Notes under the pieces: generated by a model
What the model saw: only the letters and a program-made list of their open reading frames with translations
What the model was told of the DNA's origin: nothing
Database searches by the model: none
Shown here: positions 1-18,606 of the stretch, one piece after another
How positions within the stretch are numbered: the first letter of the stretch is position 1
Layout of the letters: each line of letters opens with the position of its first letter
Origin: an uncultured Gammaproteobacteria bacterium
Lineage (GTDB): Bacteria; Pseudomonadota; Gammaproteobacteria; UBA9214
Direction of reading: 5' to 3'
Length of the DNA stretch: 18,606 nucleotides
NCBI GenBank assembly: GCA_963827755.1
Contig: CAWHCQ010000043.1
Location: forward strand, 1 to 18,606
Made by a program: the position numbers and the translations under genes

Positions 1-1
1 C

Positions 2-139: not shown

Positions 140-144
140 CCGGC

Positions 145-495: not shown

Positions 496-507
496 CAACG
501 ACCTGGC

Positions 508-1465: not shown

Positions 1466-1517
1466 GTCCTGATGTAGAATGACTGCAGGCCTTTCCTCTA
1501 AACAAACGGACCAGGTT

Positions 1518-3283
1518 ATGACGCGACTCTCCAGTACATCTCTAAAGGCTCTTCTTCTCATTGCTTGCGGCGTCCTGTATTCAGGTGCGGCCAGTGCCGT
1601 ACCGGCGATATGGGAGGCACAACTCGGGGCAACCGTTACGAATGCGGCCATTGTCCCGGCGCTGGATGACCAGGATGACCTCGATACCGGCACCGACCTG
1701 AGCTTCGGCACCTGTCCTTTCCATTTGCCGGTACAACCTATACCGATATCGACGTGCTGAATATTTCCAGTAACGGTTTTATCAGCCTGGGTGCCAGTAA
1801 CGGCAATGATCCAGCCGCCTCCGCGAACCTGCTGATGACGGATACCAGCCCGCGAATCGCGCCCTTCTGGACCGGACCTTGACCTGACTCAAGGGGGTGA
1901 CGTCTACATCAACCGCTTCAACGATGATGCCGATGCTGCCATTGACCGCATCGTAATCACCTACGCGGCCGGTCTCAATCAGTGCATTACCTCGGATTGC
2001 TCGGTGCTTGTCCAGGTACAACTGCTGGAAGATGGCACTATTATCTTTGGCTATAACGGCATCGACCTGGTCAATCCGGGTGATACGAACGTATCAGATC
2101 TGCTGATCGGCATCTCGCCTGCCCCGGCGGAATTCCCCCGACTAGTTCCGATCTGAGCGCCCTGCTGCCGACCTTTGACAGCGGCACTGAGCAAACCATT
2201 TATGAACTGTTCGCGGCGGTACCTGCCACGCCGGCCTCCCCGCTGTTTGATCTGGATGACACCAACATCATCTTTACCCCCAATCTGACCAACGGTTTTG
2301 ACGTTAGTGACAGCATGGCCAACCCACCGGTCTCAACTGAACCGCCCATCTGGGAGAGCAGGATCGGTACCACCATCGACGGGCAGGCACTGGACAACCA
2401 GGATGAGCTTTCCGTAGATCTCAACTTCGACACCTTGTCGTTCCCGTTTGCCGGTACCACCTATAATGGTGCCGACGTACTGAACATCTCCAGTAACGGT
2501 TTCATCAGCCTGGGGGGAGACAACGGCCCCGACTCTTCACCCAGTGCAGCGATCCTGACCGGAGATGTCTTTCCGCGTATCGCGCCCTTCTGGACCGACC
2601 TGGATCCTGAGTTTGAAGGCGGCGATATCTTCATCAATCGCTTTACTGACGACGATGCCGACGCGGACATTGATCGTATCGTCGTTACCTTCGCGCTTGG
2701 CCATTTCGAGTGCAACGCCGATGATTGCTCGGTGCTGGCACAGGTGCAATTGCTGGAAAATGGCACCATCATCTTCGGCTACAATGGCATCGACCTCGAA
2801 AACACCCTGAACAACGTCACCGAGGACCTGCTGGTCGGTCTCTCTCCCGTCATTGGCGCAACGGACCTGGGCAGTGCAAACATTGGCGACACGGCACCGT
2901 TTAACAGCAGCGCAGGCGACGCCGTCTACGAACTGTTCGAAGCGGCTTCTGCACCCCCGTTTGACCTCGACGGCGGCAACGTGGTGTTTACCCCAGACGG
3001 CGGTGGCGGTTTTAATGTCACGGCCCCTGGTGTCGGTGGCGTGGGCATCGGCGGCGGTGGTGGTGGCGGCGGTGGCGGCGGGTGCAGTCTCGCGGGTAAC
3101 GATGCCGCATTTGACCCGACCCTGTGGCTACTGGTGCTGGTCTCGGTCATCTACCTGCGTCAGCGGCGTTCACGCGCTGAAAGTGCGCAAGTGTCACCTA
3201 AGCGGATACATGCCCTGTCGATGCAAGCACTGCTGCTCGCCGGACTGTTTTCCGGCGCGCTGTTTGCGCGGACCTGCCCTTGA
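1518..3283 (+). CDS. Secreted/surface protein with two tandem nidogen (NIDO)-like domains, a Gly linker and a JDVT-CTERM-like sorting domain; several frameshifts in 1710-2150
   Basis: Signal peptide MTRLSSTSLKALLLIACGVLYSGAASA. Motifs SFPFAGTTY, NISSNGFISLG, RIAPFWT and VQLLE(D/N)GTIIFGYNGID occur twice, about 1600-2310 and 2340-3025. Then GGGGGGGGGGGCSLAGNDAAFDPTLWLLVLVSVIYLRQRR. The 3' end is uncertain (see findings). Confidence 0.75.
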
Positions 3284-4271
3284 CCGTACCCCTTAACCTG
3301 GGCAGCCTTGAGTGGATCGTCACCAACAAAGCGGGAACGAGTTTGGGAGCGGTTCAAGAAACGGCCTTCACGGGCGACTGTGACGGCAGCGTCGACGGCA
3401 TGGGCATCAGTAACGCCACCAGCGCAAGCGGGGCCACCAATGCCTTCGACAATGCCTGGATGCTGTTTGTAAACGACGAGGTCTTTGTTGCCCCTGCCCC
3501 TGGCACGGTAGACCTGACCAGTGAGCTATTAACAGCCGGGCCGGTGCCGCTTTCCGACCTCGACACCACTCTCGAAATCCTCTTCTCGCGCTTTCTGCAG
3601 GCGGCGCGCATTCGCGCGCTGTTTGCAAACACGACCAACTCCGCAATCACCGTTGACGTGGATGTCCCCATCAACCTCGGCTCTGATGACGCCACCAGGA
3701 TTGAAGCGGCCTCGATCGACGACGATGTATTTACCACTGCCGACCGCTGGATTGTCACTTCGGACACCTGTCGACAATAACGCCGTCAACACCACCGTCA
3801 TTTTTGGCCCGGGCACACCCACTGTCACACCCCTTGAGCGTCACCTCCACTGTCTGCAACGATGACAAGAACAATGATAAAGGCATCGGCTTTTCCTTCA
3901 GCATTACCGTCCCGGCCTTTGCAACGCGCTCACTGATGTTTTTTGCAGGACTGGGCGACATCCAGGGGACCAATAACACCATCGACGGCGCTATCACGAA
4001 TGCGACCATGTTCAACAGCAATACCAGCATCGACATCGGATTGCTGGACGACCTGTCAGCGACCGAGCAGAAGGAAATTCTCAACTGGGACTTTTCAACA
4101 ACCATCAACACCGCCGCCACTGCAGCTGAAGATGATGAAGACAGAACCTTTATCGACGATTTTTTTGGCTGCAGCCTGGGCAAGCACAACACTAAAGATC
4201 CGATACTGCCGCTGCTGGTCGCATTTGCAATCGTCGGCGTTTTCATCCGCAACAGAGTTTTTCGCGCCTAG
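3191..4271 (+). CDS. Second secreted protein or module with a C-terminal JDVT-CTERM-like anchor; frameshifts near 3268, 3765 and 3830
   Basis: Signal-like (V/M)SPKRIHALSMQALLLAGLFSGALFA. Joining the ORF pieces 3280..3780, 3623..3865 and 3804..4271 gives a continuous beta-rich domain (NLGSDDATRI..ADRWIVTSD..NTTVIFGPG..TVPAFATRSLMFF) ending FFGCSLGKHNTKDPILPLLVAFAIVGVFIRNR. Confidence 0.65.
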
Positions 4272-4278
4272 TCCTCGA

Positions 4279-4305
4279 ACACCTGCAGGAAGGCCTTGCA
4301 GGTGT
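4279..4305. terminator. Stem-loop after the stop codon, a possible terminator between convergent genes
   Basis: ACACCTGCA-ggaaggcct-TGCAGGTGT, a 9-bp inverted repeat with no U tract. Confidence 0.35.
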
Positions 4306-4313
4306 GACAGGAT

Positions 4314-4652
4314 GTAGGGTGCGTTTTACGCACCATGGCATACTTGAAAAAACCAGATGGTATGTTCCAACACCGAAATGGTGCATGAAATGCACCCTAC
4401 CCGGTGACTGCCCAACCCAGCGTAGGGTGCGTTTTACGCACCATGGCATACCTGAAAAAACCAGATGGTATGTTCCAACACCGAAATGGTGCATGAAATG
4501 CACCCCACCCGGTGACTGCCCAACCCAGCGTCAGGGTGCGTTTTACGCACCATGGCTGAAAAAACCAGATGGTATGTTCCAACACCGAAATGGTGCATGA
4601 AATGCCCCTCCCGGTGACTGCCCAACCCAGCGTAGGGTGCGTTTTACGCGCC
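4314..4652. repeat. Tandem array of REPIN/BIME-like units (GTAG-family REP doublets), period about 108 bp, 3 units plus a partial fourth
   Basis: Units start at 4314, 4422, 4530 and 4632. Each has GTAGGGTGCGTTTTACGCACC, a conserved spacer, the inverted GGTGCATGAAATGCACCCTAC and a linker. Confidence 0.9.
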
Positions 4653-5007
4653 ACTGCGGTCATACCCCGGCGGCCAGTGCATCGGCCGGCCACCCAGCAC
4701 ATGCAGGTGAATATGGTAAACCGACTGCCCGGCCCCGGCATTGCAGTTCATCACCATGCGGTAACCCGGCGCGGCAATGCCCTCATCTTCGGCAACCTGT
4801 TTGGCCGCGAGATAGAGCTTGCCAACGACGGCGGCATTTTCCTCGTTTAAATCATTGCTGGTTGCGATATGCGCCTTCGGAATAACCAGCACATGGACTC
4901 GGCGCCTGCGGGTTTACATCGCGAAACGCCAGTACCGTTTCATCCTCGTAGACCACGTCCGGCTGAATTTCACCGGCCACCATTTTGCAGAATAAACAAT
5001 CTGACAT
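4644..5007 (-). CDS. hinT: Histidine triad nucleotide-binding protein, with a frameshift near 4896
   Basis: MSDCLFCKMVAGEIQPDVVYEDETVLAFRDVNPQAP from the ATG at 5007 joins LVIPKAHI..GQSVYHIHLHVLGGRPMHWPPG. Confidence 0.93.
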
Positions 5008-5021
5008 TGATAAGCTCCGGG

Positions 5022-5618
5022 TTAGATTTCAAGTCGGCCTGAAAAGGCATGGGAAAGTGTGCTGCTGTCGATGTATTCCAGTTCACCACCCATCGGCACA
5101 CCGTGTGCAATACGGGTGGCACGGATGCCGTGCGCACGCGCCATCTCGCTGACAAAATGTGCCGTGGCCTCGCCCTCAACGGTCGGGTTTGTCGCCAGAA
5201 TCATCTCGCTGATCTGGCCGGTCGCAAGCCGCGCCTCGAGCAGATCCAGTCCGAGCGCCTCAGGGCCAATGCCATCCAGCGGCGAGAGATGCCCCATGAG
5301 CACAAAATACAGCCCCTTGTAGCCGGTAGACTGTTCCAGCGCCTGTACATCGGCCGGTGTCTCGACGATACATAATTGACTGCGATCACGCCGGTCATTC
5401 GCACACAGGCCGCACACGGCCGTTTCTGTCAGGGTACGGCACTCACTGCAATTGCCGACCTTCTCCATCGCCTCATTCAGTGCCTCGGCCAGCTGGCGGC
5501 CACCGTCACGATTATGCTCCAGCAATTGAAAGGCCATGCGTTGTGCGGATTTTGGCCCAACGCCCGGCAGACAACGCAAGCTTTCAACCAGGCGCTCGAT
5601 CAGCCGGGAGGTACTCAT
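5022..5618 (-). CDS. recR: Recombination mediator RecR
   Basis: [11 protein letters not shown] helix-hairpin-helix, C4 zinc finger, Toprim motif [12 protein letters not shown], and [14 protein letters not shown]. Confidence 0.98.
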
Positions 5619-5633
5619 GCAACCGGGCGCATG

Positions 5634-5958
5634 CTAGAACGGCAACTTCATGCCCGCAGGCAAATTCATACCGCTGGTCAGTCCGGACATGCGCTCTTGC
5701 GTCGTCACCTCGACCTTGTGCGCCGCGTCATTGATCGCAGCCGCCACCAGGTCCTCCAGCATATCCTTGTCATCCGCTAACAGGCTGTCATCGATAACGC
5801 ACACGCCGCACCTCGTGCTTACCGGTCATCGTGACCTTGACCAGCCCGCCACCGGATTCACCGGTCACTTCCAGGCTGGCCAGCTCGGCCTGTGCCTTCT
5901 CCATATTGGCCTGCATTTCCTGCGCCTGCTTCATCAGGTTTCCTAAACCACCTTTCAT
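5634..5958 (-). CDS. ybaB: YbaB/EbfC nucleoid-associated protein, with a frameshift near 5800
   Basis: Manual translation gives [53 protein letters not shown] / [40 protein letters not shown]. It sits in the dnaX-ybaB-recR synteny. Confidence 0.95.
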
Positions 5959-6048
5959 AATCGCTACCTCGGTTCATTCAAGTCTATAAATAAAATCAGC
6001 TGCAGCTGTATAACGTATACGTGGAGCGCATGCATGATGAGCTGTCAC

Positions 6049-6250
6049 GCATGAGCCCCTGTCGCGCTTGCGAAGCGCTCCTAAGACAATAGAGCTTATC
6101 CGCATTGCTGGGCAGCAAAGCGACGATACCATACATGGCCATCGATGGGAGGCGCTCCCAACCTGCATTTAACACCTGCAGGAACGCGCTTGCAGGCGCG
6201 ATACCCCTGCATGAGCCCCTATCGCGCCTGCAAGGCGCTCCTGCAACAAT
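6049..6250. repeat. Degenerate REP-like cluster (G(T/C)AGGAGCG type) between dnaX and ybaB
   Basis: Imperfect 42-bp direct repeat at 6049-6090 and 6209-6250 (gcatgagcccctRtcgcgcYtgc..gcgctcct..acaat). Segment 6177-6202 is an imperfect inverted copy of 6221-6244. Confidence 0.7.
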
Positions 6251-6307
6251 CGACCCGGCCGATCCATTCAATCCAGGCGTTGCTGGCAAACGCTTGCCAC
6301 AACTTCA

Positions 6308-7958
6308 TCACTTCGGTCGAATCGAATCCATTTGCACCGCCCCGCCAAAGGCATCCTGTAGCGCGCGGATATTCTCATCACCCTCGATCGAATCCTGCGC
6401 CTGCTGCTGGCGCTCATCCTGTTCGCGAATACGCCGGCTTGCCGGTGTCTCATGTGGCAACTCACCTTCCTTGGTGATCTTTACGCTGACGGGATGCTGG
6501 AAATGCGTAGCATAACGCCTGCTCCAGCTGCTCGGTGCGTTCCTTGTTGAGTAGATAGGCATGTGCAGGATCCAGGGACAGCCGTACACTGTTATCTTCC
6601 ATGCCGTGGAATGCACAATGTTGCGCCATCTGCCCGGCCATGCCCTTTAATGTGATCGCCCCGATAATCCCACCCCAGGTCTCCGCATTGTCCGCTGACT
6701 GTCCAGCTGCCTGGGTGACGGGTGGTGCTGCTGAGGTCTGTGCCACAGCCGCCGCATTGGTAACGGAGGCAACTGGCGCAGCCGCGTCAGCCGGTGGTTG
6801 TTTGCGAACCGGTTTCGCTGTTTTTTTCGGTAGCGATTTCGCCGCTGCCGCCTGTGTCTGTTTGGCCGGTGCGGCAGCCGGGCGAAACGCCAGCATGCGC
6901 AACAGCAACATTTCAAAACCGCCACGCGGCTGTGGCGACAGCGGCAGATCGCGCCGCCCCAGCAGCCCGATCTGGTAATACAACTGGACATCTTCAGGAG
7001 AAATACGCTCTGCCAGCGCCAGTACCACATCGCGGTCACCAAGGCTGTCATCAATCGCGTCCGGCAGGGCCTGGGCAATCGCGATACGCTGCAACAGCCC
7101 CACCATGTCAGCCAGTAATGCCGCATAGTCCGGTGCAAAATCATCGGCCTTGCCAATCTCTTCCATCAGCAGGGCGGCGTTATTCTCTGCCAGCGCGTCG
7201 AACAGCCGATAGACCACGTCGCGATCGATACTGCCGAGCATACTGCGCACCTCGTCTTCCTTGAGTTCGCCATCACCGAAGGCAATCGCCTGGTCGAGCA
7301 GACTCAGGGCATCACGCATACTGCCATCGGCGGCATACGCCAGCTGGCGCAGCGCACCGCTATCGGTCTTGATATTTTCCTGTGCAAGGATGTTCTCGAG
7401 TTGCGCGGTAATCTGCGGCAGCGTCAGGCTCTTCAGATTGAATTGCAGGCAGCGTGACAACACGGTCACCGGCAAACGTTGCGGATCGGTTGTCGCCAGC
7501 AGAAACTTGACGTGTGGCGGCGGCTCTTCAAGGGTTTTCAGCAAGGCATTAAAGCTGTGCGTTGACAGCATGTGGACTTCGTCAATCAGGTAGACCTTGT
7601 AGCGCCCGCGGGTCGGCGCATATTGCACGTTCTCGAGCAGATCCCGGGTGTCCTCGACCTTGGTACGCGAGGCGGCATCGACCTCGATGAGATCAACAAA
7701 ACGGCCACTGTCGATTTCCTCGCAGGCACTGCAGCTGCCACAGGGCGTGGAACTCACCCCGGCTTCACAATTCAGTGCCTTGGAAAAGATACGTGCAATG
7801 GTGGTCTTACCGACACCACGGGTACCGCTGAACAGGTAGGCGTGATGCAAGCGGTCATTGTCCAGCGCATTGACCAGGGCGCGCCGCACATGGTCCTGCC
7901 CGACCAGTTCGGTAAACGTACGTGGACGCCATTTACGCGCCAGGACTTGATAGCTCAT
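6308..7958 (-). CDS. dnaX: DNA polymerase III subunit gamma/tau, with a frameshift near 6513
   Basis: MSYQVLARKWRP, GTRGVGKT, DEVHML and SRC motifs. The C-terminus ATHFQHPVSVKI..ETPA..ALQDAFGGAVQMDSIRPK continues in ORF 6308..6616. Confidence 0.97.
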
Positions 7959-8012
7959 CTGGTTTTAAGTATCGGTTAGGGTCACTGAACGGGATGTGAC
8001 GGCCCGGGAAAA

Positions 8013-8124
8013 GGTGACCTGCACCAGCCACACCCCGGCACTCGAATCCACTGCTGCCGCTGCTCCCTTCCAGGCCTGACGGGGTTCACAGCTTCTCGTC
8101 GCGAGGGGACCAGCACAAGCCACC
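8013..8124 (-). ncRNA. ffs: Signal recognition particle 4.5S RNA
   Basis: The minus strand has the SRP domain IV motif GTGAACCCCGTCAGGCCTGGAAGGGAGCAGC. The ends GGTGGCTTGTGCTGG and CTGGTGCAGGTCACC pair. It lies immediately upstream of dnaX. Confidence 0.95.
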
Positions 8125-8201
8125 AGCGGTATTATCGCAGAAGTCGGTGGTTAAATTCCATCGGGATCAGCATAAGACCCCTTGCGGAGCCTTTTTATTT
8201 T

Positions 8202-8446
8202 TGGCGGAGAGGGAGGCCGTTCCCGCACATCCCTGTGCTCCACGGCACCTGCACCTCCCTGTGCATTGGGATTCGCGCTGATTGGATTATCGAGGCTTCA
8301 AATCCCGGTCAGCGCCGGAGACAAAAAAGGCCCCTCACGGGGCCTTTTCTTTTTGGCGGAGAGGGAGGCCGTTCCCGCACATCCCTGTGCTCCACGGCAC
8401 CTGCACCTCCCTGTGCATTGGGATTCGTGCTGATTGGATTATCGAG
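8202..8446 (-). repeat. tRNA-Ser 3'-end-linked repeat, type A (152-bp period, one full and one truncated unit)
   Basis: TGGCGGAGAGGGAGG at 8202 and 8354, each followed by about 78 near-identical bases. A terminator hairpin lies at 8323-8348 and a degenerate one at about 8174-8200. Confidence 0.92.
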
Positions 8447-8531
8447 AGCTCGGTGTTTCCATATTTTTCAATTGGTTACGAAGCTATCGTGTCCAGATCA
8501 TGTCTAACAGAATCCGAGAAACACCAGGAGC

Positions 8532-8585
8532 TTGGCAATCCCGCGACCACATGGTATTTTCTACATAAATCTACAAAACTGTAGA
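8532..8585 (+). promoter_or_regulatory. Candidate sigma70 promoter and operator of the toxin-antitoxin operon
   Basis: TTGGCA (8532), a 17-bp spacer, then TATTTT (8555) preceded by TGn. Palindrome TCTACA-aaac-TGTAGA at 8570-8585, an extra TCTACA half-site at 8560, and RBS GAGGAGG. Confidence 0.55.
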
Positions 8586-8597
8586 GGAGGATCTGCC

Positions 8598-8864
8598 ATG
8601 AGCACAACCACACAAGTTTCCGCCTATATCTCGGAAGAGACCAAGGCCGCGATTGAAGCGTATGTGAAGCGTCGCGGTGTGAAGAAGGCCTACTTGATCG
8701 AAGAGGCGCTACAGCACCACCTTCAGGCATTGCGTGAGATCCCCGAGGATTTGATTATCCCCTCCCGGCTGATGTTGACTGGTGAGGCAATGGCAGAGAT
8801 CGCCGAACGTGTCATCCAGGAAGAGCAACCCACGGAATCCTTGAAAGCGCTGTTTCGTGAATAA
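8598..8864 (+). CDS. Ribbon-helix-helix antitoxin (DUF1778/AtaR-like role)
   Basis: 88 aa, MSTTTQVSAYISEETKAAIEAYVKRRGVKKAYLIEEALQHHL, showing a beta-alpha-alpha pattern. Strong RBS, and it overlaps the GNAT start. Confidence 0.8.
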   Translation: MSTTTQVSAYISEETKAAIEAYVKRRGVKKAYLIEEALQHHLQALREIPEDLIIPSRLMLTGEAMAEIAERVIQEEQPTESLKALFRE

Positions 8865-9603
8865 GGCGAAGCAGGAAGTTCTGGTCAGGCGACTTGAACC
8901 CCTGGACGATCGCACCCGATTCCGTAGCGGAAATATCGACCTCGACCGCTTCTTTCTACGCTATGCCGGTCAGAATCAGTTTCGACACCACATTGGAACG
9001 ACCTATGTCGCCGTCCAGGGTGACCATATCACCGGATTTGTCACTGTCTCCAGCGGAGAGATGGTTGCAGAAAAACTGACGAAAGCCCTGCGCCGACGCC
9101 TGCCCGCTTACCCCCTTCCGATACTCCGCCTTGCCCGACTCGCCGTGGACGAAAGATTCCAGGGGCATGGCATCGGACGGCTGTTACTGCGCGCCATGCT
9201 TGAACTTGCCCTGGAGATGCGAAACCGCGTCGGTTGCATCGGTGTGATCGTGGATGCCAAACCGGATGCAGTTCCCTTTTATTCGTCTTTGGGCTTCAAA
9301 CCTGTCGACCTGGTCAGTGGCGCCCTCAGCGATCGACCCGAGCCCATCGCTATGTTCTTGCCCATTGGCCAGATTGCCTTGGCCACCAAAGAAGCAGCGA
9401 TCGACCCGAGCCCGTCGCCATGTTCTTGCCCATTGGCCAGATTGGCTTGGCCACCAAATCGGAAGAAGACGGCGAAAGGATGGATGACGAGTGGGAGAAT
9501 GACGACTCGGTACACACCTCCACGCCACGGCGTACAAAGGCGCAGGCCAGGGTCGGGAAGATCCTGGAGGACAAAAGCCGTGAAGAACTACTGGATCTGC
9601 TAA
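8857..9603 (+). CDS. GNAT-family acetyltransferase toxin (AtaT/TacT-like); C-terminus altered by a 68-bp duplication
   Basis: FRSGNIDLDRFF, PAYPLPILRLARLAVDERFQGHGIGRLLL and VIVDAKPDAVPFYSSLGF. The core domain ends near 9390 and the remaining residues look out of frame. Confidence 0.88.
   Translation: MNKAKQEVLVRRLEPLDDRTRFRSGNIDLDRFFLRYAGQNQFRHHIGTTYVAVQGDHITGFVTVSSGEMVAEKLTKALRRRLPAYPLPILRLARLAVDERFQGHGIGRLLLRAMLELALEMRNRVGCIGVIVDAKPDAVPFYSSLGFKPVDLVSGALSDRPEPIAMFLPIGQIALATKEAAIDPSPSPCSCPLARLAWPPNRKKTAKGWMTSGRMTTRYTPPRHGVQRRRPGSGRSWRTKAVKNYWIC
9327..9458 (+). repeat. Imperfect tandem duplication, 68-bp period
   Basis: cagcgatcgacccgagccc...ttggccaccaaa starts at 9327 and 9395, with 3 substitutions in 64 bp. 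Confidence 0.95.
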
Positions 9604-9725
9604 TCGAACTGAGTGGCCGGGTCCCGGACGTCAGGCAACACATCGTCGAAAACGAACAACTCGCCAGCGGCCAAGTAGACAAACTCGTTCGCGCGCTGAG
9701 ATTGGAGATCCGGAATCGTGTCTAA
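9460..9725 (+). pseudogene. Fragment of an unrelated helical protein fused behind the duplication
   Basis: Frame of ORF 9234..9725: an acidic linker, then ILEDKSREELLDLLIELSGRVPDVRQHIVENEQLASGQVDKLVRALRLEIRN. From recall this resembles an internal part of SWIM-zinc-finger family proteins. Confidence 0.45.
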
Positions 9726-9781
9726 CTGATCGCGAAATACCGCTGGTACAAGAACAGTCATAACTTTTTTTATTGATGGAT

Positions 9782-10327
9782 TGGCGGAGAGGGAGGGATT
9801 GACTCGGGTCCATCCATGGACCCTCACCCTGCGGGCGCCGGCCTTGCCGGCGTCCCAATCGGCAATCCTGCCGATTGGTCGAACCGCCTGATTGATACAT
9901 CGAGGGTTCAAATCCCGGCTACCGGCGGAGACAAAAAAAGCCCCTTGCGGGGCTTTTTATACTTGGCGGAGAGGGAGGGATTGACTCGGGTCCATCCATG
10001 GACCCTCACCCTGCGGGCGCCGGCCTTGCCGGCGTCCCAATCGGCAATCCTGCCGATTGGTCGAACCGCCTGATTGATACATCGAGGGTTCAAATCCCGG
10101 CTACCGGCGGAGACAAAAAAAGCCCCTCGCGGGGCTTTTTATACTTGGCGGAGAGGGAGGGATTGACTCGGGTCCATCCATGGACCCTCACCCTGCGGGC
10201 GCCGGCCTTGCCGGCGTCCCAATCGGCAATCCTGCCGATTGGTCGAACCGCCTGATTGATACATCGAGGGTTCAAATCCCGGCTACCGGCGGAGACAAAA
10301 AAAGCCCCTCGCGGGGCTTTTTATACT
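9782..10327 (-). repeat. tRNA-Ser 3'-end-linked repeat, type B (RtT/TRIP-like), 3 x 182 bp
   Basis: TGGCGGAGAGGGAGGGATT at 9782, 9964, 10146 and, in the tRNA itself, 10328. The units are near-identical; I see only one difference, in the terminator loop. Confidence 0.97.
10297..10322 (-). terminator. Intrinsic, potentially bidirectional terminator after tRNA-Ser(GGA); repeated at 10115-10140 and 9933-9958
   Basis: AAAAAAAGCCCC-tcgc-GGGGCTTTTT. Confidence 0.85.
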
Positions 10328-10415
10328 TGGCGGAGAGGGAGGGATTCGAACCCTCGATACGTTGCCGTATACACACTTTCCAGGCGTGCGCCTTCGACCA
10401 CTCGGCCACCTCTCC
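10328..10415 (-). tRNA. tRNA-Ser(GGA)
   Basis: GGAGAGGTGGCCGAGTGGTCGAAGGCG-CACGC-CTGGAAA-GTGTG-TATACGGCAACGTATCGAGGGTTCGAATCCCTCCCTCTCCGCCA, 88 nt with a long variable arm. Confidence 0.98.
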
Positions 10416-10495
10416 AGGACTTGCTTGCCTGTTTTCCATGAAACAGGGCACGACAGCCTAAACCTGCCGGGACGCTTGTACAAATATTTATCAGT

Positions 10496-10586
10496 TGGCG
10501 GAGAGGGTGGGGTTCGAACCCACGTGGGGCTAACGCCCCCAACCGATTTCGAGTCGGTGCCGTTATGACCACTTCGGTACCTCTCC
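10496..10586 (-). tRNA. tRNA-Ser(CGA)
   Basis: GGAGAGGTACCGAAGTGGTCATAACGGC-ACCGA-CTCGAAA-TCGGT-TGGGGGCGTTAGCCCCACGTGGGTTCGAACCCCACCCTCTCCGCCA, 91 nt. Confidence 0.97.
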
Positions 10587-10776
10587 TTGTTTACAGAATC
10601 CGTTTGCGGGATTCATCTACATTTACGCGCAATGCGATATGATAACCCCGCAACGACTCATCTAGCTGACGGTATACAGGTTGCCCATGACACTCACAGG
10701 CTTCAGATCGACCGGGGCAGGCCTCCAGGCGCTCTTGCAGGCTGCATATTCTAGCGTATGCGCACCTCTTCGCGCC

Positions 10777-12165
10777 ATGGGTCGAATCACCCTGCTCTGC
10801 CTTGCCTGCCTGCTGCTGACGGCCTGTGACAGGCCGCAGAGCCTCCTCAGTCAGGTACAGGAACAGAATGAGCTGATCGTCATCAGCCGCAATGGCCCGA
10901 CGACGTATTATGAAGGCAGCAACGGGCCAACCGGCTTCGAATATGAACTGGCCAGCCTGTTTGCGGACTTTCTGGGCGTGAAATTGCGCATGGTCGTGCC
11001 ACCCAATTTCAGTGACATCCTGCCCCTGATCACGCGTGGCGATGCCCACCTCGCCGCCGCCGGACTGACCATCACCGAAAAACGCAGGGAAATGGTCCGT
11101 TTCGGCCCCGTCTACCAGAGAATCACCCCGCAGCTGGTCTATCGCAGCGGCACCCGGCCGCCAACAACGCTGGCCGAAGTCGGTGGCATACTCGAGGTGG
11201 TCGCCGGCAGCAGTCACGAAGAGCATCTGAATATACTCCAGCAGGACTACCCGGAGCTGACCTGGTTTGCGAAAGACAGCAGCAGCGAGGAACTGCTGGA
11301 GTATGTATGGGAGCAATTGATCGAGTATACCGTCGCCGATTCCAACGAACTGGCCGTCCATCGCCACTTTTACCCCGAGTTGATACCCGCGTTCGATCTC
11401 ATGCCTGAGGAACCGCTCGCCTGGGCCTTTCCGCATGGCGATGATGACAGCCTGTTCAACGCGGCCGTGGTTTTTTTCAACAAGATCAGGAAAAACGGCA
11501 CGCTGGTGCAGATGATTGAACGTTATTACGGCCATATCGGTGATTTCGATTATGTCGGCACCCGGCGCTACCAGGCCGATGTTGAAGTACTCCTGCCGCG
11601 CTACCGGGAGATGTTTATGCAAGCGGCCAGGGACGTCGATATGGACTGGCGCCTGCTTGCAGCCATCAGCTACCAGGAATCCCACTGGGACCCGGATGCC
11701 GTCTCGCCGACCGGAGTGCGCGGCATGATGATGCTGACACTCGACGCGGCAAAAGACATGGGCATCGAGAACCGCCTCGACCCGGCGCAGAGCATCCAGG
11801 GCGGCGCGAACTACCTGTCTGCCATGGTTGAAAAGATTCCCGATCGTATTGCCGAGCCCGACCGCACCTGGCTGGCACTGGCAGCCTACAACGTCGGTTT
11901 CGGACACCTCGAGGATGCACGCATCCTCACCCAGGAGAACAAGGGCGACATCGATAAATGGATCGATGTAAAAAAGAGTCTGCCCCTGCTCAGCCAGAAG
12001 AAGTGGTACAAGCGAACCCGTCATGGCTATGCCCGCGGACGCGAGCCGGTGCGCTTCGTCGAGAATATCCGCACCTATTACGACATCCTGGTGTGGCTGA
12101 CGGAAAAAGACAACGAGGTTCCTGAAGCACCGATACTGCAACAGTTCGACCCGCAGGCGCTATAA
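10777..12165 (+). CDS. mltF: Membrane-bound lytic murein transglycosylase F
   Basis: Probable start MGRITLLCLACLLLTAC (lipobox-like). An N-terminal solute-binding-like domain (GFEYELA) precedes an SLT domain (AAISYQESHW, GVRGMMMLT, ALAAYNVG, GYARGREP). Adjacent to tadA. Confidence 0.95.
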   Translation: MGRITLLCLACLLLTACDRPQSLLSQVQEQNELIVISRNGPTTYYEGSNGPTGFEYELASLFADFLGVKLRMVVPPNFSDILPLITRGDAHLAAAGLTITEKRREMVRFGPVYQRITPQLVYRSGTRPPTTLAEVGGILEVVAGSSHEEHLNILQQDYPELTWFAKDSSSEELLEYVWEQLIEYTVADSNELAVHRHFYPELIPAFDLMPEEPLAWAFPHGDDDSLFNAAVVFFNKIRKNGTLVQMIERYYGHIGDFDYVGTRRYQADVEVLLPRYREMFMQAARDVDMDWRLLAAISYQESHWDPDAVSPTGVRGMMMLTLDAAKDMGIENRLDPAQSIQGGANYLSAMVEKIPDRIAEPDRTWLALAAYNVGFGHLEDARILTQENKGDIDKWIDVKKSLPLLSQKKWYKRTRHGYARGREPVRFVENIRTYYDILVWLTEKDNEVPEAPILQQFDPQAL

Positions 12166-12195
12166 CGAAACGGTCCGACCCTCGTCCTGAAGTCA

Positions 12196-12310
12196 ATCGC
12201 GGATGAGATCCGCTCCTACCGGTTGAATGATCTCTGCAGGAGCCAGCGCCAGCTGGCGAATGAAGTGTTTCGCGACAGCGAGGTGTTCGCGAGCTGGCGC
12301 TCGCTCCTAC
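12196..12310. repeat. Three GTAGGAGCG-type REP elements between convergent genes
   Basis: 12196-12219 reads GTAGGAGCGGATCTCATCCGCGAT on the minus strand. 12236-12260 is GCAGGAGCCAGCGCCAGCTGGCGAA. 12286-12310 reads GTAGGAGCGAGCGCCAGCTCGCGAA on the minus strand. Confidence 0.8.
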
Positions 12311-12344
12311 GGGCTGAAATCAGATTGCAGGATGGCAATGCCGG

Positions 12345-13340
12345 TTATTGCTGACCCAGCATCTCCGCTTCCATCGACAGGTAGACCTGGTAGGCATTGC
12401 GCCGGCTGGCCTCTTCAAAGGCCGGCAGGTCTTTGTAGTCAGACCAGTCGATTGCATCATAGGCCTCTCTGAACGGGACGAAATCATCCACGGCACGTTT
12501 CATTTCTTCCCGCAGGAAGACCAGGTAACGACGCGTCAGCCCGATGGCCTCGTTCGGATCCTCCGCCACCCCGCCATGTCCCGGCACCAGGGCAACCAGC
12601 TTTTCCCGCTCCATGCGCTCCAGCACCTCGACCCAGCGACGGGTGTTGGCATCCCCGAGGTAGGGCAAGCGGCCCTCGAATATAATGTCGCCGGAAAACA
12701 GTACCCGGTCGGGTTCCACGTAAAGCGTCAGGTCACCGTCTGAATGGGCATTGCCGACAACCGTCACGGTAAAGTCGACATCACCGAGGCGGAACCGTTT
12801 GCCCTCCTGCAGGTACTGGTCCGGGTATACCAGCCGGGTATCCTCGTTGACCCAGGGGTCAAGGGTAAAACGGCGGTCTTCAAGGCGTTCTTTGGCGTTG
12901 TCCGAGGCAAGATAGAGATCCGCACCGGCGGGCGCGAGGATATCGGCATCGAGGTCCTCGAACACCTGCAGGCCGTAGATGTGATCGGCATGATAGTGAC
13001 TGACAATCACGCGCACCACCGGCTCGCTGGTGATGGCCCTGATTTTTTTCAGCAACAGCTGTGCCAGCGAGGGTGAACCCAGCGCGTCGAACACCACCAC
13101 ACCGGCGCCGGTGACAATGACGCCGGCATTTGAGATGAAACCCTGGTTATCGGTGGCAACGCCGGCGACGCCCTGGGCAAACCAGACATGTTCGGATACG
13201 CGCTGCAATGCCATGTCGACCGTTGCAGGGGCATAACGCCCGGCAGTGTTCGGCGACAGGCGCACCTCAGCACCGCTAACGGGCTGCCACAAAAGCAGGC
13301 AAAGACCCAACAGACAGAATCCTGATCTCATATGACCCAT
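12345..13340 (-). CDS. Periplasmic MBL-fold metallo-hydrolase
   Basis: Signal peptide, SNAG, SHYHADH, AHSDGD, FSGD and VPGHG motifs. Confidence 0.9.
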   Translation of the reverse strand: MGHMRSGFCLLGLCLLLWQPVSGAEVRLSPNTAGRYAPATVDMALQRVSEHVWFAQGVAGVATDNQGFISNAGVIVTGAGVVVFDALGSPSLAQLLLKKIRAITSEPVVRVIVSHYHADHIYGLQVFEDLDADILAPAGADLYLASDNAKERLEDRRFTLDPWVNEDTRLVYPDQYLQEGKRFRLGDVDFTVTVVGNAHSDGDLTLYVEPDRVLFSGDIIFEGRLPYLGDANTRRWVEVLERMEREKLVALVPGHGGVAEDPNEAIGLTRRYLVFLREEMKRAVDDFVPFREAYDAIDWSDYKDLPAFEEASRRNAYQVYLSMEAEMLGQQ

Positions 13341-13341
13341 T

Positions 13342-13794
13342 CTAGCCCCTGCGGGCGTGAAAGAAAGCCCTGAGCAGGTCGCCGCACGCCTCTGCCAGCA
13401 CGCCGCCGGTCACCTCGACCCGGTGGTTCAGGCCCGGCAGCTCAAACGCACGGCAAAGGCTCTCGACGGCCCCGCTCTTCGGGTCAGGAGCGCCAAATAC
13501 CAGCCGTGCGACGCGTGCGTGCACCATGGCGCCGACACACATCAGGCAGGGTTCCAGCGTGACGTAGAGGGTAGCGCCCGTGACACGGTAATTTTGCAGG
13601 GCCTGCCCGGCCGCGCGCAGGGCCATCACCTCGGCATGGGCCGTCGGGTCATGGCCGGCGATCGGCTGGTTCCAGCCCTCGGCAAGCAGCGCGTCGTCCT
13701 GCACCAGCAGCGCACCGACCGGCACTTCGCCGCCGGCCCCGGCGTTTGCCGCAAGGTCCAGGGCACGCTGCATCCAGTGTTCATCGGAATGCAT
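13342..13794 (-). CDS. tadA: tRNA adenosine(34) deaminase
   Basis: GEVPVGA, HDPTAHAE, LYVTLEPCLMC and FFHARR. Confidence 0.97.
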   Translation of the reverse strand: MHSDEHWMQRALDLAANAGAGGEVPVGALLVQDDALLAEGWNQPIAGHDPTAHAEVMALRAAGQALQNYRVTGATLYVTLEPCLMCVGAMVHARVARLVFGAPDPKSGAVESLCRAFELPGLNHRVEVTGGVLAEACGDLLRAFFHARRG

Positions 13795-13809
13795 GGTTGC
13801 AGATCAGAT

Positions 13810-13897
13810 GCAGCCCGGGTGCGGGCACGGAGCGCAGGACCTCGGGGGCCTGACACCACAGCCGCCCCGGGCTGCACTGCGTTTCATCCGGGCGACG
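13810..13897. repeat. Degenerate inverted REP-like pair (GTAGCCCGGATG type)
   Basis: gcagcccgggtgc...ctcgggg near 13810, and on the minus strand gtcgcccggatgaaacgcagtgcagcccgggg near 13865-13896. Confidence 0.5.
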
Positions 13898-14127
13898 AAC
13901 AGCTTGAGCATATTTGCAATGCAACTATTCCCACTCAGTAGTAACGTAATAATTATATCGTTTATTTTCAATTACTTATATCCACTTCACAGTGCGTGTG
14001 TAAGTAACGTGTAACTCACTACTCACTCTGCACGTTTTTTCTACGCTTGTGCTCCTATTGCAACTCAATAGTCTACGCAATTCTTACTTGAACATTGTGC
14101 GACTAAAAACGTGCATAAACAATGCAC

Positions 14128-14364
14128 TTAGAGATTATTTAAGAAGTTGGAAAGCTTACTTTTCGTGTTAGCTTTGTCAGCTTCGTCTACATCGCTACTT
14201 TCGTACTTCAAAGCATCTATTGCTCTTTCAACAACAGTCATCTTCACTTGTTGCTTAGTCATAATACGACTGGCACTACGCTGCTTTTCTATACTACGCG
14301 ATGTAACTAAGCGAGGTAGATTGCCAGGCGAAGCATCAATTGAGCCTCGGTTAACCCGTGACAG
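14128..14364 (-). pseudogene. Low-GC gene remnant (3' fragment)
   Basis: Stop-free minus-strand frame ..IDASPGNLPRLVTSRSIEKQRSASRIMTKQQVKMTVVERAIDALKYESSDVDEADKANTKSKLSNFLNNL*, with AT-rich codons. Confidence 0.4.
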
Positions 14365-14555
14365 TCATATCATCGATCCCGGTAATGAGAGCTGCCTCTT
14401 CAGACACGCTGTTTCACAACAACAGGAGAGCAAAAATACTAGAAAAAAACAATGGAATCAGGCCATAATCAGACCGGACAGGCGGGTCATTTCCGGATGC
14501 AATGCCCGGGGCAATTTTAAATGCAAATCAATACCAGACACAACAGGCCAACGAA

Positions 14556-15032
14556 ATGAAATCTTTCAGCTTTGTCGTACTACTATTCCTTTTCTGGATC
14601 TTCTTGTCGGGACATCTGGAGCCCCTGCTGCTGGGATTGGGGGTGGCATCTGTCGCGCTCACGGTTTTCCTGTCACGGCGAATGAATCTTATCGATCACG
14701 AAAGCTATCCGCTGCATCTCTCGTCGAAATTCCCGGGCTTTTTTATCTATATATTCAGAGAGATCGTCAAGGCAAATATCGATGTTGTCAGACGGATCCT
14801 GAGCTGGAGGAAGGCGCCGATCAGCCCGCAGATGATCGAAATCCCGCAATCGCAGGAAACCGATCTCGGTGCGGTGATTTACGCCAATTCCATCACCCTG
14901 ACTCCCGGCACGGTCACGATCAGGTTATCGAAAGACAATCTCACCGTTCATGCGCTCAGCAAGGAGGCGGCCAGCGAGCTCGCCACAGGCGCCATGTCGA
15001 AAGAGATCTCTAACCGGATGTTCGACAAATAG
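14556..15032 (+). CDS. mrpE: Mrp Na+/H+ antiporter subunit E
   Basis: FWIFLSGH, EIVKANIDV, YANSITLTPGT and LTVHAL. Confidence 0.93.
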   Translation: MKSFSFVVLLFLFWIFLSGHLEPLLLGLGVASVALTVFLSRRMNLIDHESYPLHLSSKFPGFFIYIFREIVKANIDVVRRILSWRKAPISPQMIEIPQSQETDLGAVIYANSITLTPGTVTIRLSKDNLTVHALSKEAASELATGAMSKEISNRMFDK

Positions 15033-15331
15033 TGTTTATCGCAGCTTCACTGGCGATCCTTGTGACGATGGGATTGGCCCTTACGCGCGCCCTTGCCGGG
15101 CCTACGACCTATGATCGTGTTGCGGCGGTCAACATGTTCGGCACCAAGACTGTGCTGCTGATCGCGGTTATGGCGTTTTCCTCCGGCAGAGGTGATCTGC
15201 TGGATATTGCGCTGGTCTATGCGTTGATCAATTTCATAGGTGTCGTCGCAGCACTGAAGCTGGTCACTCGTGGCGATTTTCACTCCTCCGACAGCGATGA
15301 GAGCGAAGCAAACCAGGGGAGACCGGAATGA
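15032..15331 (+). CDS. mrpF: Mrp antiporter subunit F
   Basis: RALAGPTTYDRV and LDIALVYALINFIG; GTG start overlapping the mrpE stop. Confidence 0.93.
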   Translation: MFIAASLAILVTMGLALTRALAGPTTYDRVAAVNMFGTKTVLLIAVMAFSSGRGDLLDIALVYALINFIGVVAALKLVTRGDFHSSDSDESEANQGRPE

Positions 15332-15648
15332 TTATCGATATCCTCAGCTGGATCTGCCTGTTGGCCGGCGGGGCGCTGGGTATCGTTGGCGGTATCGGTA
15401 TCCACCGCTTCCCCGACTTCTACAGCCGCCTGCACGCTGCCGGAATAACCGATACCCTTTGCGCCATGTTGATCCTGCTGGGCCTCGGGCTGCAGGCCGG
15501 CTGGAGTATCGCCGCCTTTAAACTGGCGTTGATTTTCGTGTTCCTCTTTTTTACGAGCCCAACCGCTTCCCATGCGCTGGCAAACGCGGCGCTGCACAGC
15601 GGTCTGAAGCCCAGGCTGGATAGCGATGAACGTGAAGCCGGCTCATGA
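15328..15648 (+). CDS. mrpG: Mrp antiporter subunit G
   Basis: RFPDFYSRLHAAG and TSPTASHALA. Confidence 0.95.
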   Translation: MIIDILSWICLLAGGALGIVGGIGIHRFPDFYSRLHAAGITDTLCAMLILLGLGLQAGWSIAAFKLALIFVFLFFTSPTASHALANAALHSGLKPRLDSDEREAGS

Positions 15649-16236
15649 TCGATATTTTAATCAACGTCACCTTGCTGGCCTTTCTGGCGATCACCGCGGT
15701 AGCTATCGTACGCATGGCAAACCTGTTTGCCATCGTCATGCTGTTCGGGATTTTCAGTCTGCTGTCGGCCGGTCTGTTTGTGGTTATGGATGCTCCCGAT
15801 GTGGCCTTTACCGAGGCGGCGGTGGGTGCTGGAATCTCTACAGTTTTGATGTTGGCCACCCTGGCATTGGTCAAAAGACGACAAAAACCCTACTACGACA
15901 GAGGCGCCCCGGACCCACCGTGCATGGTTACCGCTGATCGTCGTGGTCATAACAGGTTCGGCACTGGTTTACGGCACCTGGGATATCCCGGGGTTTGGTG
16001 CGCCCGATGCGCCAGCACAGACACATGTCGCGCGCTACTACATCGACAATGCGATGCCGGATACCGGCGTGCCGAATATCGTCACCGCGGTGCTGGCGAG
16101 TTATCGCGGGTTCGATACCCTGGGCGAGGTCACGGTTATCTTTACCGCGGCCGTGGCCGTACTGCTGTTGATCGGCGGGAAACGCCCAAAACCACGAGTC
16201 AAGACAAAGGATGAGGGGAAACAAGATGAGGCCTAA
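15645..16236 (+). CDS. Mrp DUF4040/MrpB-related subunit (equivalent to the MrpA C-terminus), with a frameshift near 15890-15920
   Basis: APDVAFTEAAVGAG in the first ORF, and PNIVTAVLASYRGFDTLGE in ORF 15943..16236. Confidence 0.88.
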
Positions 16237-16644
16237 CCTTATCCTGCATGTTATTGCAAAGTTCCTTATCCCACTGATTATCCTGTTTGCACTCTATGTC
16301 CAGTTTCATGGTGATTTCGGGCCCGGGGGCGGCTTTCAGGCCGGGGTGATTTTCAGCGCCGCGCTCATTCTTTACTCCCTGGTATTCGGGCTGGATACCG
16401 CAGAAAAGATCATCCCTCCACACTGGTTGCGCATACTGGCTGCGCTGGGCGTGGTGATCTATGCCGGGGTCGGGATGGAGTCCTTGCTGCTGGGGGTAAC
16501 TATCTCGATTACACGCTTTTGGGCAGCAATCAGATTGCCGGCCAGCATCTGGGTATTCTGCTGGTGGAACTGGGCGTAGGCATTACGGTGGCGGCGTCCA
16601 TGTTGATTCTATTTTTTGCCTTTGCAGGCAGGGGTAGAGACTGA
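16226..16644 (+). CDS. mrpB: Mrp antiporter subunit B, with a frameshift at the G run near 16495
   Basis: HGDFGPGGGFQAG. After the shift it reads GNYLDYTLL..GILLVELGVGITV..FAGRGRD*, with the TGA overlapping the mrpC ATG. Confidence 0.9.
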
Positions 16645-17000
16645 TGGATTTCTTTATTGGCCACTATAACTACTGGATTGTGATCGTTTTAATGATGGTC
16701 GGGCTCTATACGGTGATAAGCCGTGGCAACCTGATAAAAAAAATTATCGGCCTGAATATATTCCAGGTCTCGGTGTTTTTTCTCTATATCAGTCTGGGCA
16801 CTGTGAAGGGTGGAGCAGCGCCTATTATCACTGAAGGCGTCAAGGTCTATTCAAATCCATTACCCCATGTATTGATCCTCACCGCCATCGTGGTGGGCGT
16901 GGCAACGACGGCGCTGGCGCTGGCTTTGGTGGTGCGCATCAAGGAGTCCTACGGCAGCATTGAAGAGGATGAAATTCATAATCTGGATCATTCGCTGTAA
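16644..17000 (+). CDS. mrpC: Mrp antiporter subunit C
   Basis: NLIKKIIGL and NPLPHVLILTAIVVG. Confidence 0.95.
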   Translation: MDFFIGHYNYWIVIVLMMVGLYTVISRGNLIKKIIGLNIFQVSVFFLYISLGTVKGGAAPIITEGVKVYSNPLPHVLILTAIVVGVATTALALALVVRIKESYGSIEEDEIHNLDHSL

Positions 17001-18475: not shown

Positions 18476-18606
18476 GTGCCGAGACACTGCTGCTGACGAT
18501 CCTCCTTCTGCCGCTGGCAGGTGCGGCCGGCATTATCATTGCCCGTAACCATCCTGATGTCAGAGAGGCGGTGACGCTGCTGACGTCTACATTGATTGCC
18601 GTTTTT
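18472..18606 (+). CDS. Second MrpD-family subunit (5' part, truncated by the window)
   Basis: ATGA overlap with mrpD; MSAETLLLTILLLPLAGAAGIIIARNHPDVREAVTLLTSTLIAV. Confidence 0.75.
   Translation, partial: MSAETLLLTILLLPLAGAAGIIIARNHPDVREAVTLLTSTLIAVF

Follow-up and report, generated by a model that had tools for sequence, protein, structure and literature searches.

tRNA-linked repeat arrays with candidate CsrA-binding hairpin loops behind a tRNA-Ser operon of an uncultured gammaproteobacterium

Repeats that finish with a copy of the end of a neighboring stable-RNA gene have been known in Escherichia coli since 1978. As defined by Stenum and coworkers (2021; PMC8144298) after Egan and Landy (1978) and Rudd (1999), these tRNA-linked repeats (TLRs) have a 3' segment of 18-19 bp identical to the end of the upstream gene. 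The same paper counts 22 units at ten loci in E. coli, in tRNA or rRNA operons, reports that they are processed to discrete RNAs, and gives their function as unknown. It also reports that one of them, RrB, binds CsrA in vitro with a dissociation constant (KD) of about 100 nM, and that binding is lost on mutating three GGAs, two of which are in loops. In the E. coli tyrT region, rttR is annotated as a discrete 171-nt RNA. Here we describe two arrays of tandem units, type B and type A, that lie behind a tRNA-Ser operon on the 18,606-nt stretch of DNA analyzed (the window: GenBank assembly GCA_963827755.1, contig CAWHCQ010000043.1, positions 1 to 18,606), from an uncultured gammaproteobacterium of the lineage UBA9214.

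The arrays are very probably TLRs of the same structural family as RtT/RttR and RrB. The type B array lies directly 3' of a stable-RNA gene and on its strand, with the type A array further on along that strand; the tails are identical to the tRNA end over 19-20 nt (type B) or 15 nt (type A), and the arrays comprise 3.1 and 1.7 units, within the one to five per locus of described TLRs. The internal relation to the E. coli repeats was found for type B with a covariance model, R1, built from 30 units with the structure set by hand. No E. coli sequence is inside R1, and the tyrT and rrnB regions of E. coli K-12 served as the comparison. R1 found all four RtT units at tyrT/tyrV (32-37 bits, E 1e-8 to 2e-7), in the same places that the Rfam RtT model, used as a control, matched at 133-137 bits, and it found the rrnB TLR, RrB, at 40.4 bits (E 1e-9). 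The motifs GATGAGAA, GGTTCGAC, GAACG, CCCGAAGGG, and GAGTAATCC recur in the same order in the type B relatives and in the E. coli TLRs. Since R1 matches both RtT and RrB and these motifs are shared, the type B units are members of the TLR family, and the parallel to the E. coli tyrT repeats drawn in the first-pass annotation of this DNA is more than an analogy.

When a type B unit was compared by blastn with 5,426 E. coli genomes, none matched; the relationship is visible only with a covariance model. An Rfam search over the arrays at gathering score, which the first-pass annotation had proposed for RtT and the Csr/Rsm families, returned no match to the repeats; the RtT model (RF00391) had none between 8120 and 10480 even at E up to 10, nor did CsrB (RF00018), RsmY (RF00195), or RsmZ (RF00166) match in the arrays. 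The Rfam RtT model covers a narrow enterobacterial subgroup and is too narrow to see the type B units. The features of the operon and its arrays are as follows, with the source of each in parentheses.

10496-10586, minus strand: tRNA-Ser(CGA), the first gene of the operon (ARAGORN; Rfam tRNA, 52.6 bits)
10428-10447, minus strand: hairpin between the two tRNAs, CCTGTTT-CATGGA-AAACAGG (sequence)
10328-10415, minus strand: tRNA-Ser(GGA) (ARAGORN, Rfam)
10146-10327, minus strand: TLR type B unit 1 (TRF, repeat search; model R1, 106.8 bits)
9964-10145, minus strand: TLR type B unit 2 (TRF, repeat search, model R1)
9782-9963, minus strand: TLR type B unit 3, the last of the array (TRF, repeat search, model R1)
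9855-9878, with copies at 10037-10060 and 10219-10242, minus strand: type B hairpin 1, CCAATCGGC-AGGATT-GCCGATTGG (sequence, repeat search)
9806-9823, with copies at 9988-10005 and 10170-10187, minus strand: type B hairpin 3, GGGTCC-ATGGAT-GGACCC (sequence)
8354-8446, minus strand: TLR type A, 5'-truncated unit, with GGA hairpins at 8403-8416 and 8377-8390 (repeat search, sequence)
8202-8353, minus strand: TLR type A, full unit, with hairpins at 8251-8264 and 8225-8238 (sequence, repeat search)

The general plan of a unit is the tRNA terminator, a short GAACCC/GGGTTC hairpin, a four-hairpin module spanning about 75 nt, and finally 15-20 nt that repeat the 3' end of the gene just upstream. The type B array (TRF: 9781-10346, 182-bp unit, 3.1 copies, 99% identity) begins at the base that follows the CCA of tRNA-Ser(GGA) and has the orientation of that gene. 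In the tRNA sense, each B unit opens with a short GC hairpin that has an A run and a T run on either side, which is the tRNA terminator (10299-10322 in unit 1). An inverted copy of the tRNA T arm (10263-10280 in unit 1, 17 of 18 positions matching) follows and, with GGTTCGAC, forms a GAACC/GGTTC hairpin. The core with its four hairpins (10146-10260 in unit 1) then runs through hairpin 1, GGAC/GAAC, hairpin 2, a small GCCC-GNA-GGGC hairpin, GAG, and hairpin 3, and the unit ends with GAGTCA and AATCCCTCCCTCTCCGCCA, the tail that repeats the last 19-20 nt of tRNA-Ser(GGA). No terminator copy follows unit 3. Hairpin 1 has its counterpart in RrB hairpin 1 (loop CCGGGAG), and hairpin 3, which contains helices 4 and 5, in RrB hairpin 3 (loop CAGGACG). 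Real tRNA-Ser genes are matched by R1 as well, over their 3' 36 nt, at about 33 bits and through the two ends of the model alone; a unit thus looks like the T arm and the 3' part of the acceptor, its T loop holding a hairpin stretch of about 75 nt.

The four-hairpin structure is conserved in the type B family. In the R1 alignment of 150 matches, which is fitted to the model and so favors the structure, standard pairs make up 88.4% of cells (59.5% in shuffles, 31-44% when the partners are slid), and changes on both sides are seen in 630 cells (187 in shuffles). Covariation is seen at 21 of the 22 pairs, and none of 500 shuffles reached the observed values, a wide margin in spite of that bias. 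Helix 1 alone (hairpin 1) has double changes at eight of its nine pairs, and compensatory changes are also plain in the raw sequences of the relatives. RNAalifold predicted no pairs on a plain MAFFT alignment, as the hairpins differ in length and a model-based alignment is needed.

The family is widespread. Within the genus and class, blastn located the unit in 16 of the 36 other genus genomes and in four other families, directly behind tRNA-Ser wherever the flanking sequence sufficed. A scan of 185,579 species genomes for GTTCGAC, 65-90 nt, and then ATCCCTNNCTCTCCGCC gave at least 120 loci; the pattern fixes GTTCGAC and the tail, so that the invariance of both is imposed by the search. Among the matches listed, 116 of 133 are not the end of a real tRNA. 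Ninety of the 129 unique cores listed stand directly behind a tRNA-Ser gene (GGA 37, GCU 21, UGA 17, CGA 15), nine lie deeper in an array, 29 come with a stored flank that contains no tRNA, and one is behind a gene that ARAGORN calls tRNA-Arg(CCG). The titled hosts among these matches are mostly Gammaproteobacteria, with some labeled Opitutales, Alphaproteobacteria, Zetaproteobacteria, and Bdellovibrio. With R1 at E of 1e-6 or less, the TLR family was found in 58 of 150 other genomes, one per family across the class, with up to 15 matches in one genome. The window genome itself has, besides the three B units, two units downstream of csrA (contig C26), one behind tRNA-Ser(UGA) (C34), and one behind tRNA-Gln(CUG) (C13). 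At eight loci (L017, L053, L055, L063, L097, L107, L146, and L173) the unit lies between tRNA-Ser(GCU) and tRNA-Arg(ACG); being between two tRNAs of one operon, it must be transcribed there as a spacer.

Some other arrangements near tRNA genes were observed in these genomes. Downstream of csrA in the window genome (L001; G000:C26:5540-5660, minus strand) the expected tRNA-Ser(GCU) is rearranged: a degenerate copy of positions 1-46 is followed by a second copy of positions 10-50, which has an intact CTGCTAA anticodon loop and a terminator in place of the T arm, and the two TLR units come after it. An intact tRNA-Ser(GCU) was not found anywhere in the assembly, which is 92% complete, by ARAGORN or blastn. 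At L026 (G054:C1) an unrelated 200-bp tandem repeat stands behind tRNA-Ser(UGA), every unit of it ending in the tRNA 3' end; R1 scores three matches elsewhere in that genome. Downstream of the TLR at L015 (G050:C7) are repeats whose opening 20 nt or so are those of tRNA-Arg (GCGCCCGTAGCTCAGCTGG) and which contain CCATGGATGG-type hairpins. They are a 5'-end counterpart of a TLR.

The first-pass annotation had pointed to hairpins with GGA in the loop in both arrays, all on the tRNA-sense strand. The positions given there are all correct on the minus strand, including those of the type A hairpins GCAC-AGGGAT-GTGC (8225-8238) and GCAC-AGGGAG-GTGC (8251-8264), and so is the count of ten in five units (three times two and two times two). 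The units are copies, so the window holds only four independent hairpin designs and the count of ten is weak as statistics. Across the family, in minimum-free-energy folds of 111 non-redundant cores, GGA occurs in the loop of the first hairpin in 45 and of the last hairpin in 40, as compared with 2 and 0 for UCC, and over all 379 loops the figures are 94 for GGA and 2 for UCC. The remaining loops are mostly C-GAA-G and C-GCA-G and are likewise strand-specific. Since the loop content is strand-specific, the folded strand is the tRNA-sense strand, and the strand retention noted for the window is a recurrent property of the family. The idea that the loop motif is retained fared less evenly: GGA recurs at hairpins 1 and 3 but is optional. 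The covariance model proposed in the same place bore out the fold, and the folds of the relatives bore out the strand bias of GGA but not its presence throughout. The GGA of the hairpin between the two tRNAs is not kept in the closest of the relatives examined (L008), where the corresponding loop is GCATGAAG.

The base before GGA varies, with G in 12, U in 8, and A in at least 14 of the 40 last-hairpin loops. CA(N)GGA(N)G and CAGGA(N)(N)G, the GGA loops met most often, fit the consensus sites of CsrA/RsmE and the CsrB repeat. The type A hairpin ACAGGGAUGU likewise fits the consensus (A/U)CANGGANG(U/A) and agrees at 11 of 12 positions with RUACARGGAUGU, the consensus from systematic evolution of ligands by exponential enrichment (SELEX). 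Loop CCGGGAG of RrB hairpin 1 occurs verbatim in many relatives. We rejected the possibility that the loops are anticodon mimics; GGA loops are found in 44-58% of units whichever anticodon precedes them, and GCU and UGA, the cognate triplets, seldom occur in loops.

When the full 2.85-Mb assembly was scanned for clustered GGA-loop hairpins (stems of at least four Watson-Crick pairs, loops of 4-8 nt), both arrays, with 6 such hairpins per 600 nt, shared the top rank with three other loci; the background is 0.87 per kb per strand. The tying loci are an array resembling repetitive extragenic palindromes (REPs), a coding region, and an AT-rich repeat located where a contig ends. Among the repeats of the assembly, G000:C9:23198-23639 is a non-coding array of GATCGCGGATCAGATCCGC palindromes with a REP-like look, and G000:C10:72098-72667 is a non-coding AT-rich array of about 140-bp period at a contig end. 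A stricter scan for clusters of CANGGANG/CAGGANG, as a search for a small RNA (sRNA), was discarded, its top match being a coding acidic repeat at C13:141124.

The type A array (152-bp unit, 1.7 copies; repeat pair 8193-8294 and 8345-8446, 98% identical) is on the same strand as the tRNAs, 1.3 kb beyond the type B array. Its terminator and 5' part are 82-84% identical to type B, and its tail, CCTCCCTCTCCGCCA, copies 15 nt of the tRNA end. R1 does not match the type A core, in which two hairpins of 4 bp bear CA(N)GGA(N)G loops and the second stands on an outer GCCGT/ACGGC stem. This module is dispersed: it was found in 20 of the 36 other genus genomes, in either orientation and mostly at a distance from tRNAs, with a maximum of 11 matches per genome. 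Over 18 copies, the paired cells amount to 95.7% (86.5% in shuffles), double changes occur at 7 of 13 pairs, and in both loops C, A, G, G, and A are invariant or nearly so while N varies. The core is thus a different, dispersed module rather than a diverged type B copy, which accounts for the stems of the two types being unrelated, as the first-pass annotation had seen, and type A is a chimeric TLR variant. The window holds a non-enterobacterial member of the TLR family together with this chimera. Orthologous type A TLRs are present in two other genomes (G004 and G016). The order in G004 is csrA, tRNA-Ser(GCU), type A TLR, tRNA-Arg(ACG), so that here the unit must belong to the tRNA precursor.

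At L175-L190, from relatives in the genus, the module lies near position 1500, and some of these copies share longer flanks that include UCCCU-loop hairpins. In L010 (about 1100-1400, minus strand) and L013 (about 1200-1500, minus strand), a TLR or type-A-like hairpin stops after CAGGGA and a shared sequence beginning GAAGGTGAGAC follows; it looks as if another element inserts into CAGGGA loops at these places.

We propose that the arrays are TLRs acting at the RNA level and are probable CsrA binders, and we give this joint reading a probability of about one in two. Read-through of the weak 5-bp terminator would bring the units into the transcript of the tRNA operon; where another tRNA lies downstream, as in relatives, they would form a spacer between tRNAs. 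The tRNA-like tail would give the unit RNA a defined 3' end. The A(N)GGA hexaloops, two per unit and ten in the arrays, spaced about 50 nt apart in type B and 26 nt in type A, could then bind CsrA dimers, and the arrays would constitute a modest pool of CsrA-binding RNA, dosed by the transcription of the tRNA operon and by the number of repeats, along the lines proposed for RrA, RrB, and RrF in E. coli. A csrA gene, for which the first-pass annotation had asked, is present in the window genome (C26:5937-6092; PF02599, 88.2 bits). The best matches to CsrB, RsmY, and RsmZ genome-wide were 11.6, 22.7, and 20.4 bits, all below the cut-offs, and the candidates, judged by eye, were mostly terminators. 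The precedent of RrB in the same family makes the CsrA idea plausible. As a concept it is not new, in spite of having been put forward as undescribed for this DNA: CsrA binding by a TLR of a stable-RNA operon, with terminator read-through, was published in 2021 (PMC8144298). On the parts of the proposal, we judge binding of CsrA in vitro by the window units, argued from that analogy, to have a little less than an even chance, and a physiologically meaningful CsrA sponge to be unlikely.

A number of observations weigh against a CsrA role. About 60% of family members have C-GNA-G type loops and no GGA loop, so that GGA is not a family trait and CsrA binding cannot be the function of the whole TLR family; even among the genus cores, GGA occurs in hairpin 1 in 9 of 15 and in the last hairpin in 5 of 15 as scored (6 by eye, hairpin 3 of L010 being misfolded). 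G-U pairs, counted as 114 on the sense and 128 on the antisense strand, give no strand signal. In E. coli, Stenum and coworkers predicted the 19 tRNA-operon TLRs to be non-binders of CsrA, and deletion of rrA, rrB, and rrF changed CsrA phenotypes only modestly (PMC8144298). The loop GGAs amount to two to three sites per unit and about 14 across the TLRs of the genome, far below CsrB. Among 50 host genomes, some of them incomplete metagenome-assembled genomes and with about 48 other loci outside the comparison, 41 have csrA, and these divide into 21 with GGA-loop units and 20 without; GGA-loop units occur in two of the nine hosts with no csrA match, a trend short of significance (Fisher p = 0.15) in which phylogeny is a confounder. 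A terminator precedes each B unit, and a simple promoter and terminator scan found no minus-strand promoter-like site; the same scan missed obvious minus-strand terminator hairpins, since their A and T runs pair. Finally, in metatranscriptome contigs the tRNAs and the signal recognition particle (SRP) RNA downstream are highly covered, and the B units are covered only thinly, at a depth of 2-5 in two runs of one study. One contig over the B units is 222 nt long at about 91% identity, and DNA carry-over is possible; such contigs cannot show ends, strand, or level, and the parts they leave uncovered prove nothing.

The origin of the units bears on the alternatives. Behind tRNA-Gln(CUG) in the window genome (G000:C13:59208-59420) the unit has GGA loops in hairpins 1 and 3, and its tail, AATCCTAGTCCGCCAGCCA, reproduces the 3' end of tRNA-Gln; after the tail the terminator of tRNA-Gln occurs again, unchanged, and about 50 nt are repeated overall. 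The tails of the E. coli TLRs copy tRNA-Tyr and 5S rRNA. Since the tails differ with the local gene, the hairpin module is shared and the flanking copy of the gene end is made locally, which argues for mobility or templated duplication and against a carried attachment site. One alternative, which we regard as rather unlikely, is that TLRs are mainly a self-propagating or duplication-prone DNA element that lands behind stable-RNA genes and comes to be flanked by a copy, produced on the spot, of the end and terminator of the host gene, the RNA being a by-product and the GGA loops serving the element, perhaps as a site recognized on the folded sense strand, or nothing. The same module behind four tRNA-Ser isoacceptors, tRNA-Gln, and the tRNA-Tyr and 5S genes of E. 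coli, always with a local tail, would be expected of such an element, as would copy numbers that range from 1.3 to 3.1 per locus and reach 15 matches in one genome, different subtypes at the orthologous tRNA-Ser(GGA)-dnaX locus of genus members (L022 as against the window), units that are often at contig ends, the toxin-antitoxin cargo between the window units, the presence of L045 and L046 on one contig, and helices that are 96% Watson-Crick with no G-U strand bias. Yet the units have no regular transposase or integrase partner, their GGA and GNA loops are always on the tRNA-sense strand, which fits a transcript, several of them are unavoidable parts of tRNA precursors, and members of the family in E. 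coli are processed to discrete RNAs (PMC8144298; rttR annotation). A DNA element accounts for where the units come from, and an RNA function is compatible with it.

Downstream of the units, one of 66 open reading frames (ORFs) encodes an integrase (L011) and one an HTH_17 protein (L028), and the rest are ordinary genes, with dnaX at three loci. It is highly improbable, in light of this, that the units are scars or attachment sites, like those of cis-mobilizable elements (CIMEs), left by islands that target the tRNA-Ser 3' end and accrete into arrays. Direct repeats of the tRNA 3' end do bound each unit and start in the T loop, the classic place of crossover, the integrase and HTH_17 genes abut unit ends, and a toxin-antitoxin pair lies between the window arrays. 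But the identity of the tail depends on the upstream gene, 5S rRNA in E. coli being one example, and the hairpins covary like a folded nucleic acid, unlike protein-binding arms; we have rejected island scars as a general rule. Very unlikely, if somewhat less so, is that the GGA loops serve contacts within or between RNAs and not CsrA, with AGGGA or GGAG pairing to the C/U-rich tail AAUCCCUCCCUCUCC in a pseudoknot or in trans. AGGGAU and the AUCCCU of the tail are exactly complementary, as are GGAUU in hairpin 1 and AAUCC, and UCCCU-loop hairpins flank some dispersed copies of the type A module. The variable base before GGA would break pairing with UCCC, however, and fits A(N)GGA recognition, and RrB has the same loop GGAs yet a 5S-derived tail that is not C/U-rich.

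As for individual islands, the tyrosine integrase gene of L011 (G008:C6) and the excisionase-like HTH_17 gene of L028 (G024:C14) start right after the TLR tail, and islands may integrate into the TLR copy of the tRNA end and not the tRNA itself.

What appears to be new, judged against a literature that left out subscription papers such as Rudd (1999), is the breadth of the family with its conserved fold, the CsrA-type loops at two fixed hairpins of tRNA-linked members, and the dispersed double-hairpin module. The TLR family extends well beyond the enterobacteria, listed copies being found also in genome records labeled as other phyla, and its members repeatedly carry CsrA-type GGA hexaloops in the two places where E. 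coli RrB is bound by CsrA. If the binding is real, the Csr/Rsm network of many bacteria, some of them from lineages with no known sponge sRNA, would receive a growth-rate signal from the tRNA and rRNA operons. A broader reading, which we consider quite unlikely, is that TLRs are class-wide CsrA-titrating RNAs coupled to stable-RNA operons, of which the GGA-loop versions (about 40% of the 111, tRNA-linked ones included) report growth rate to CsrA, and that in this genus, with no recognizable CsrB, RsmY, or RsmZ, the TLR arrays and the dispersed double CA(N)GGA module are the main CsrA antagonists. One such antagonist would then sit directly behind csrA itself in some members. The tail, which always copies the local gene, is also a clue to how the TLR element spreads.

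The neighboring features of the locus are as follows.

8857-9603, plus strand: toxin-like gene for a GCN5-related N-acetyltransferase (GNAT) (Pfam Acetyltransf_10/_7/_1)
ATG near 8600 to 8864, plus strand: ribbon-helix-helix (RHH) antitoxin-like gene (Pfam RHH_1)
8019-8115, minus strand: SRP RNA (ffs), the next gene downstream, which bounds the locus (Rfam RF00169, 67.1 bits)

The RHH and GNAT pair (8532-9603) sits between the two arrays on the opposite strand and is cargo outside the RNA element, and dnaX lies beyond the SRP RNA at the downstream end of the locus. Within the GNAT toxin-like gene there is a 68-bp tandem duplication (window 9327-9458; 1.9 copies, 95%). Its ORF of 248 aa is long for such a toxin, and 68 is not divisible by 3; the C-terminus is probably frameshifted. 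Elsewhere in the window (4314-4653) a 108-bp tandem array of 3.2 copies has inverted GTAGGGTGC...GCACCCTAC arms bounding its units; it is unrelated to the TLRs.

Among known systems, CsrB, CsrC, RsmY, and RsmZ resemble the window arrays in having multiple A(N)GGA motifs in hairpin loops on one strand. They differ in having their own GacA/UvrY-dependent promoters, no link to a tRNA gene, and many more sites, about 5-22 per RNA. The 3' external transcribed spacer of leuZ (3'ETS-leuZ), mentioned in PMC8144298, is also a by-product of a tRNA precursor with a dose tied to tRNA transcription. It is a sponge for the sRNAs RyhB and RybB, soaking up base-pairing sRNAs and not a protein, and is without repeats or a copy of the tRNA end.

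RtT/rttR (RF00391) is closer. Its tandem units likewise stand behind a tRNA gene (about 178 bp in E. coli, 182 bp here) and carry a copy of the tRNA 3' end (18-19 nt in E. coli, 19-20 nt here), and its hairpin order and linker motifs agree with type B. In contrast, GGA is absent from loops 1 and 3 of the tyrT units of E. coli, and tyrT has no terminator between the tRNA and the unit, whereas here every unit has one. The E. coli RNAs RrA, RrB, and RrF are TLRs behind the 5S rRNA of rrnA, rrnB, and rrnD, single units with a 5S-copy tail, whereas the window has tRNA-linked, tRNA-tailed arrays; they also bind Hfq, a feature of the E. coli RNAs (PMC8144298). CsrA binding in vitro is GGA-dependent in RrB, and for the present units we infer it. 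RrB shares with them GGA in the loops of hairpin 1 (CCGGGAG) and hairpin 3 (CAGGACG), and for RrA, RrB, and RrF, too, the transcription of stable RNA has been proposed, in the same paper, to report growth to CsrA.

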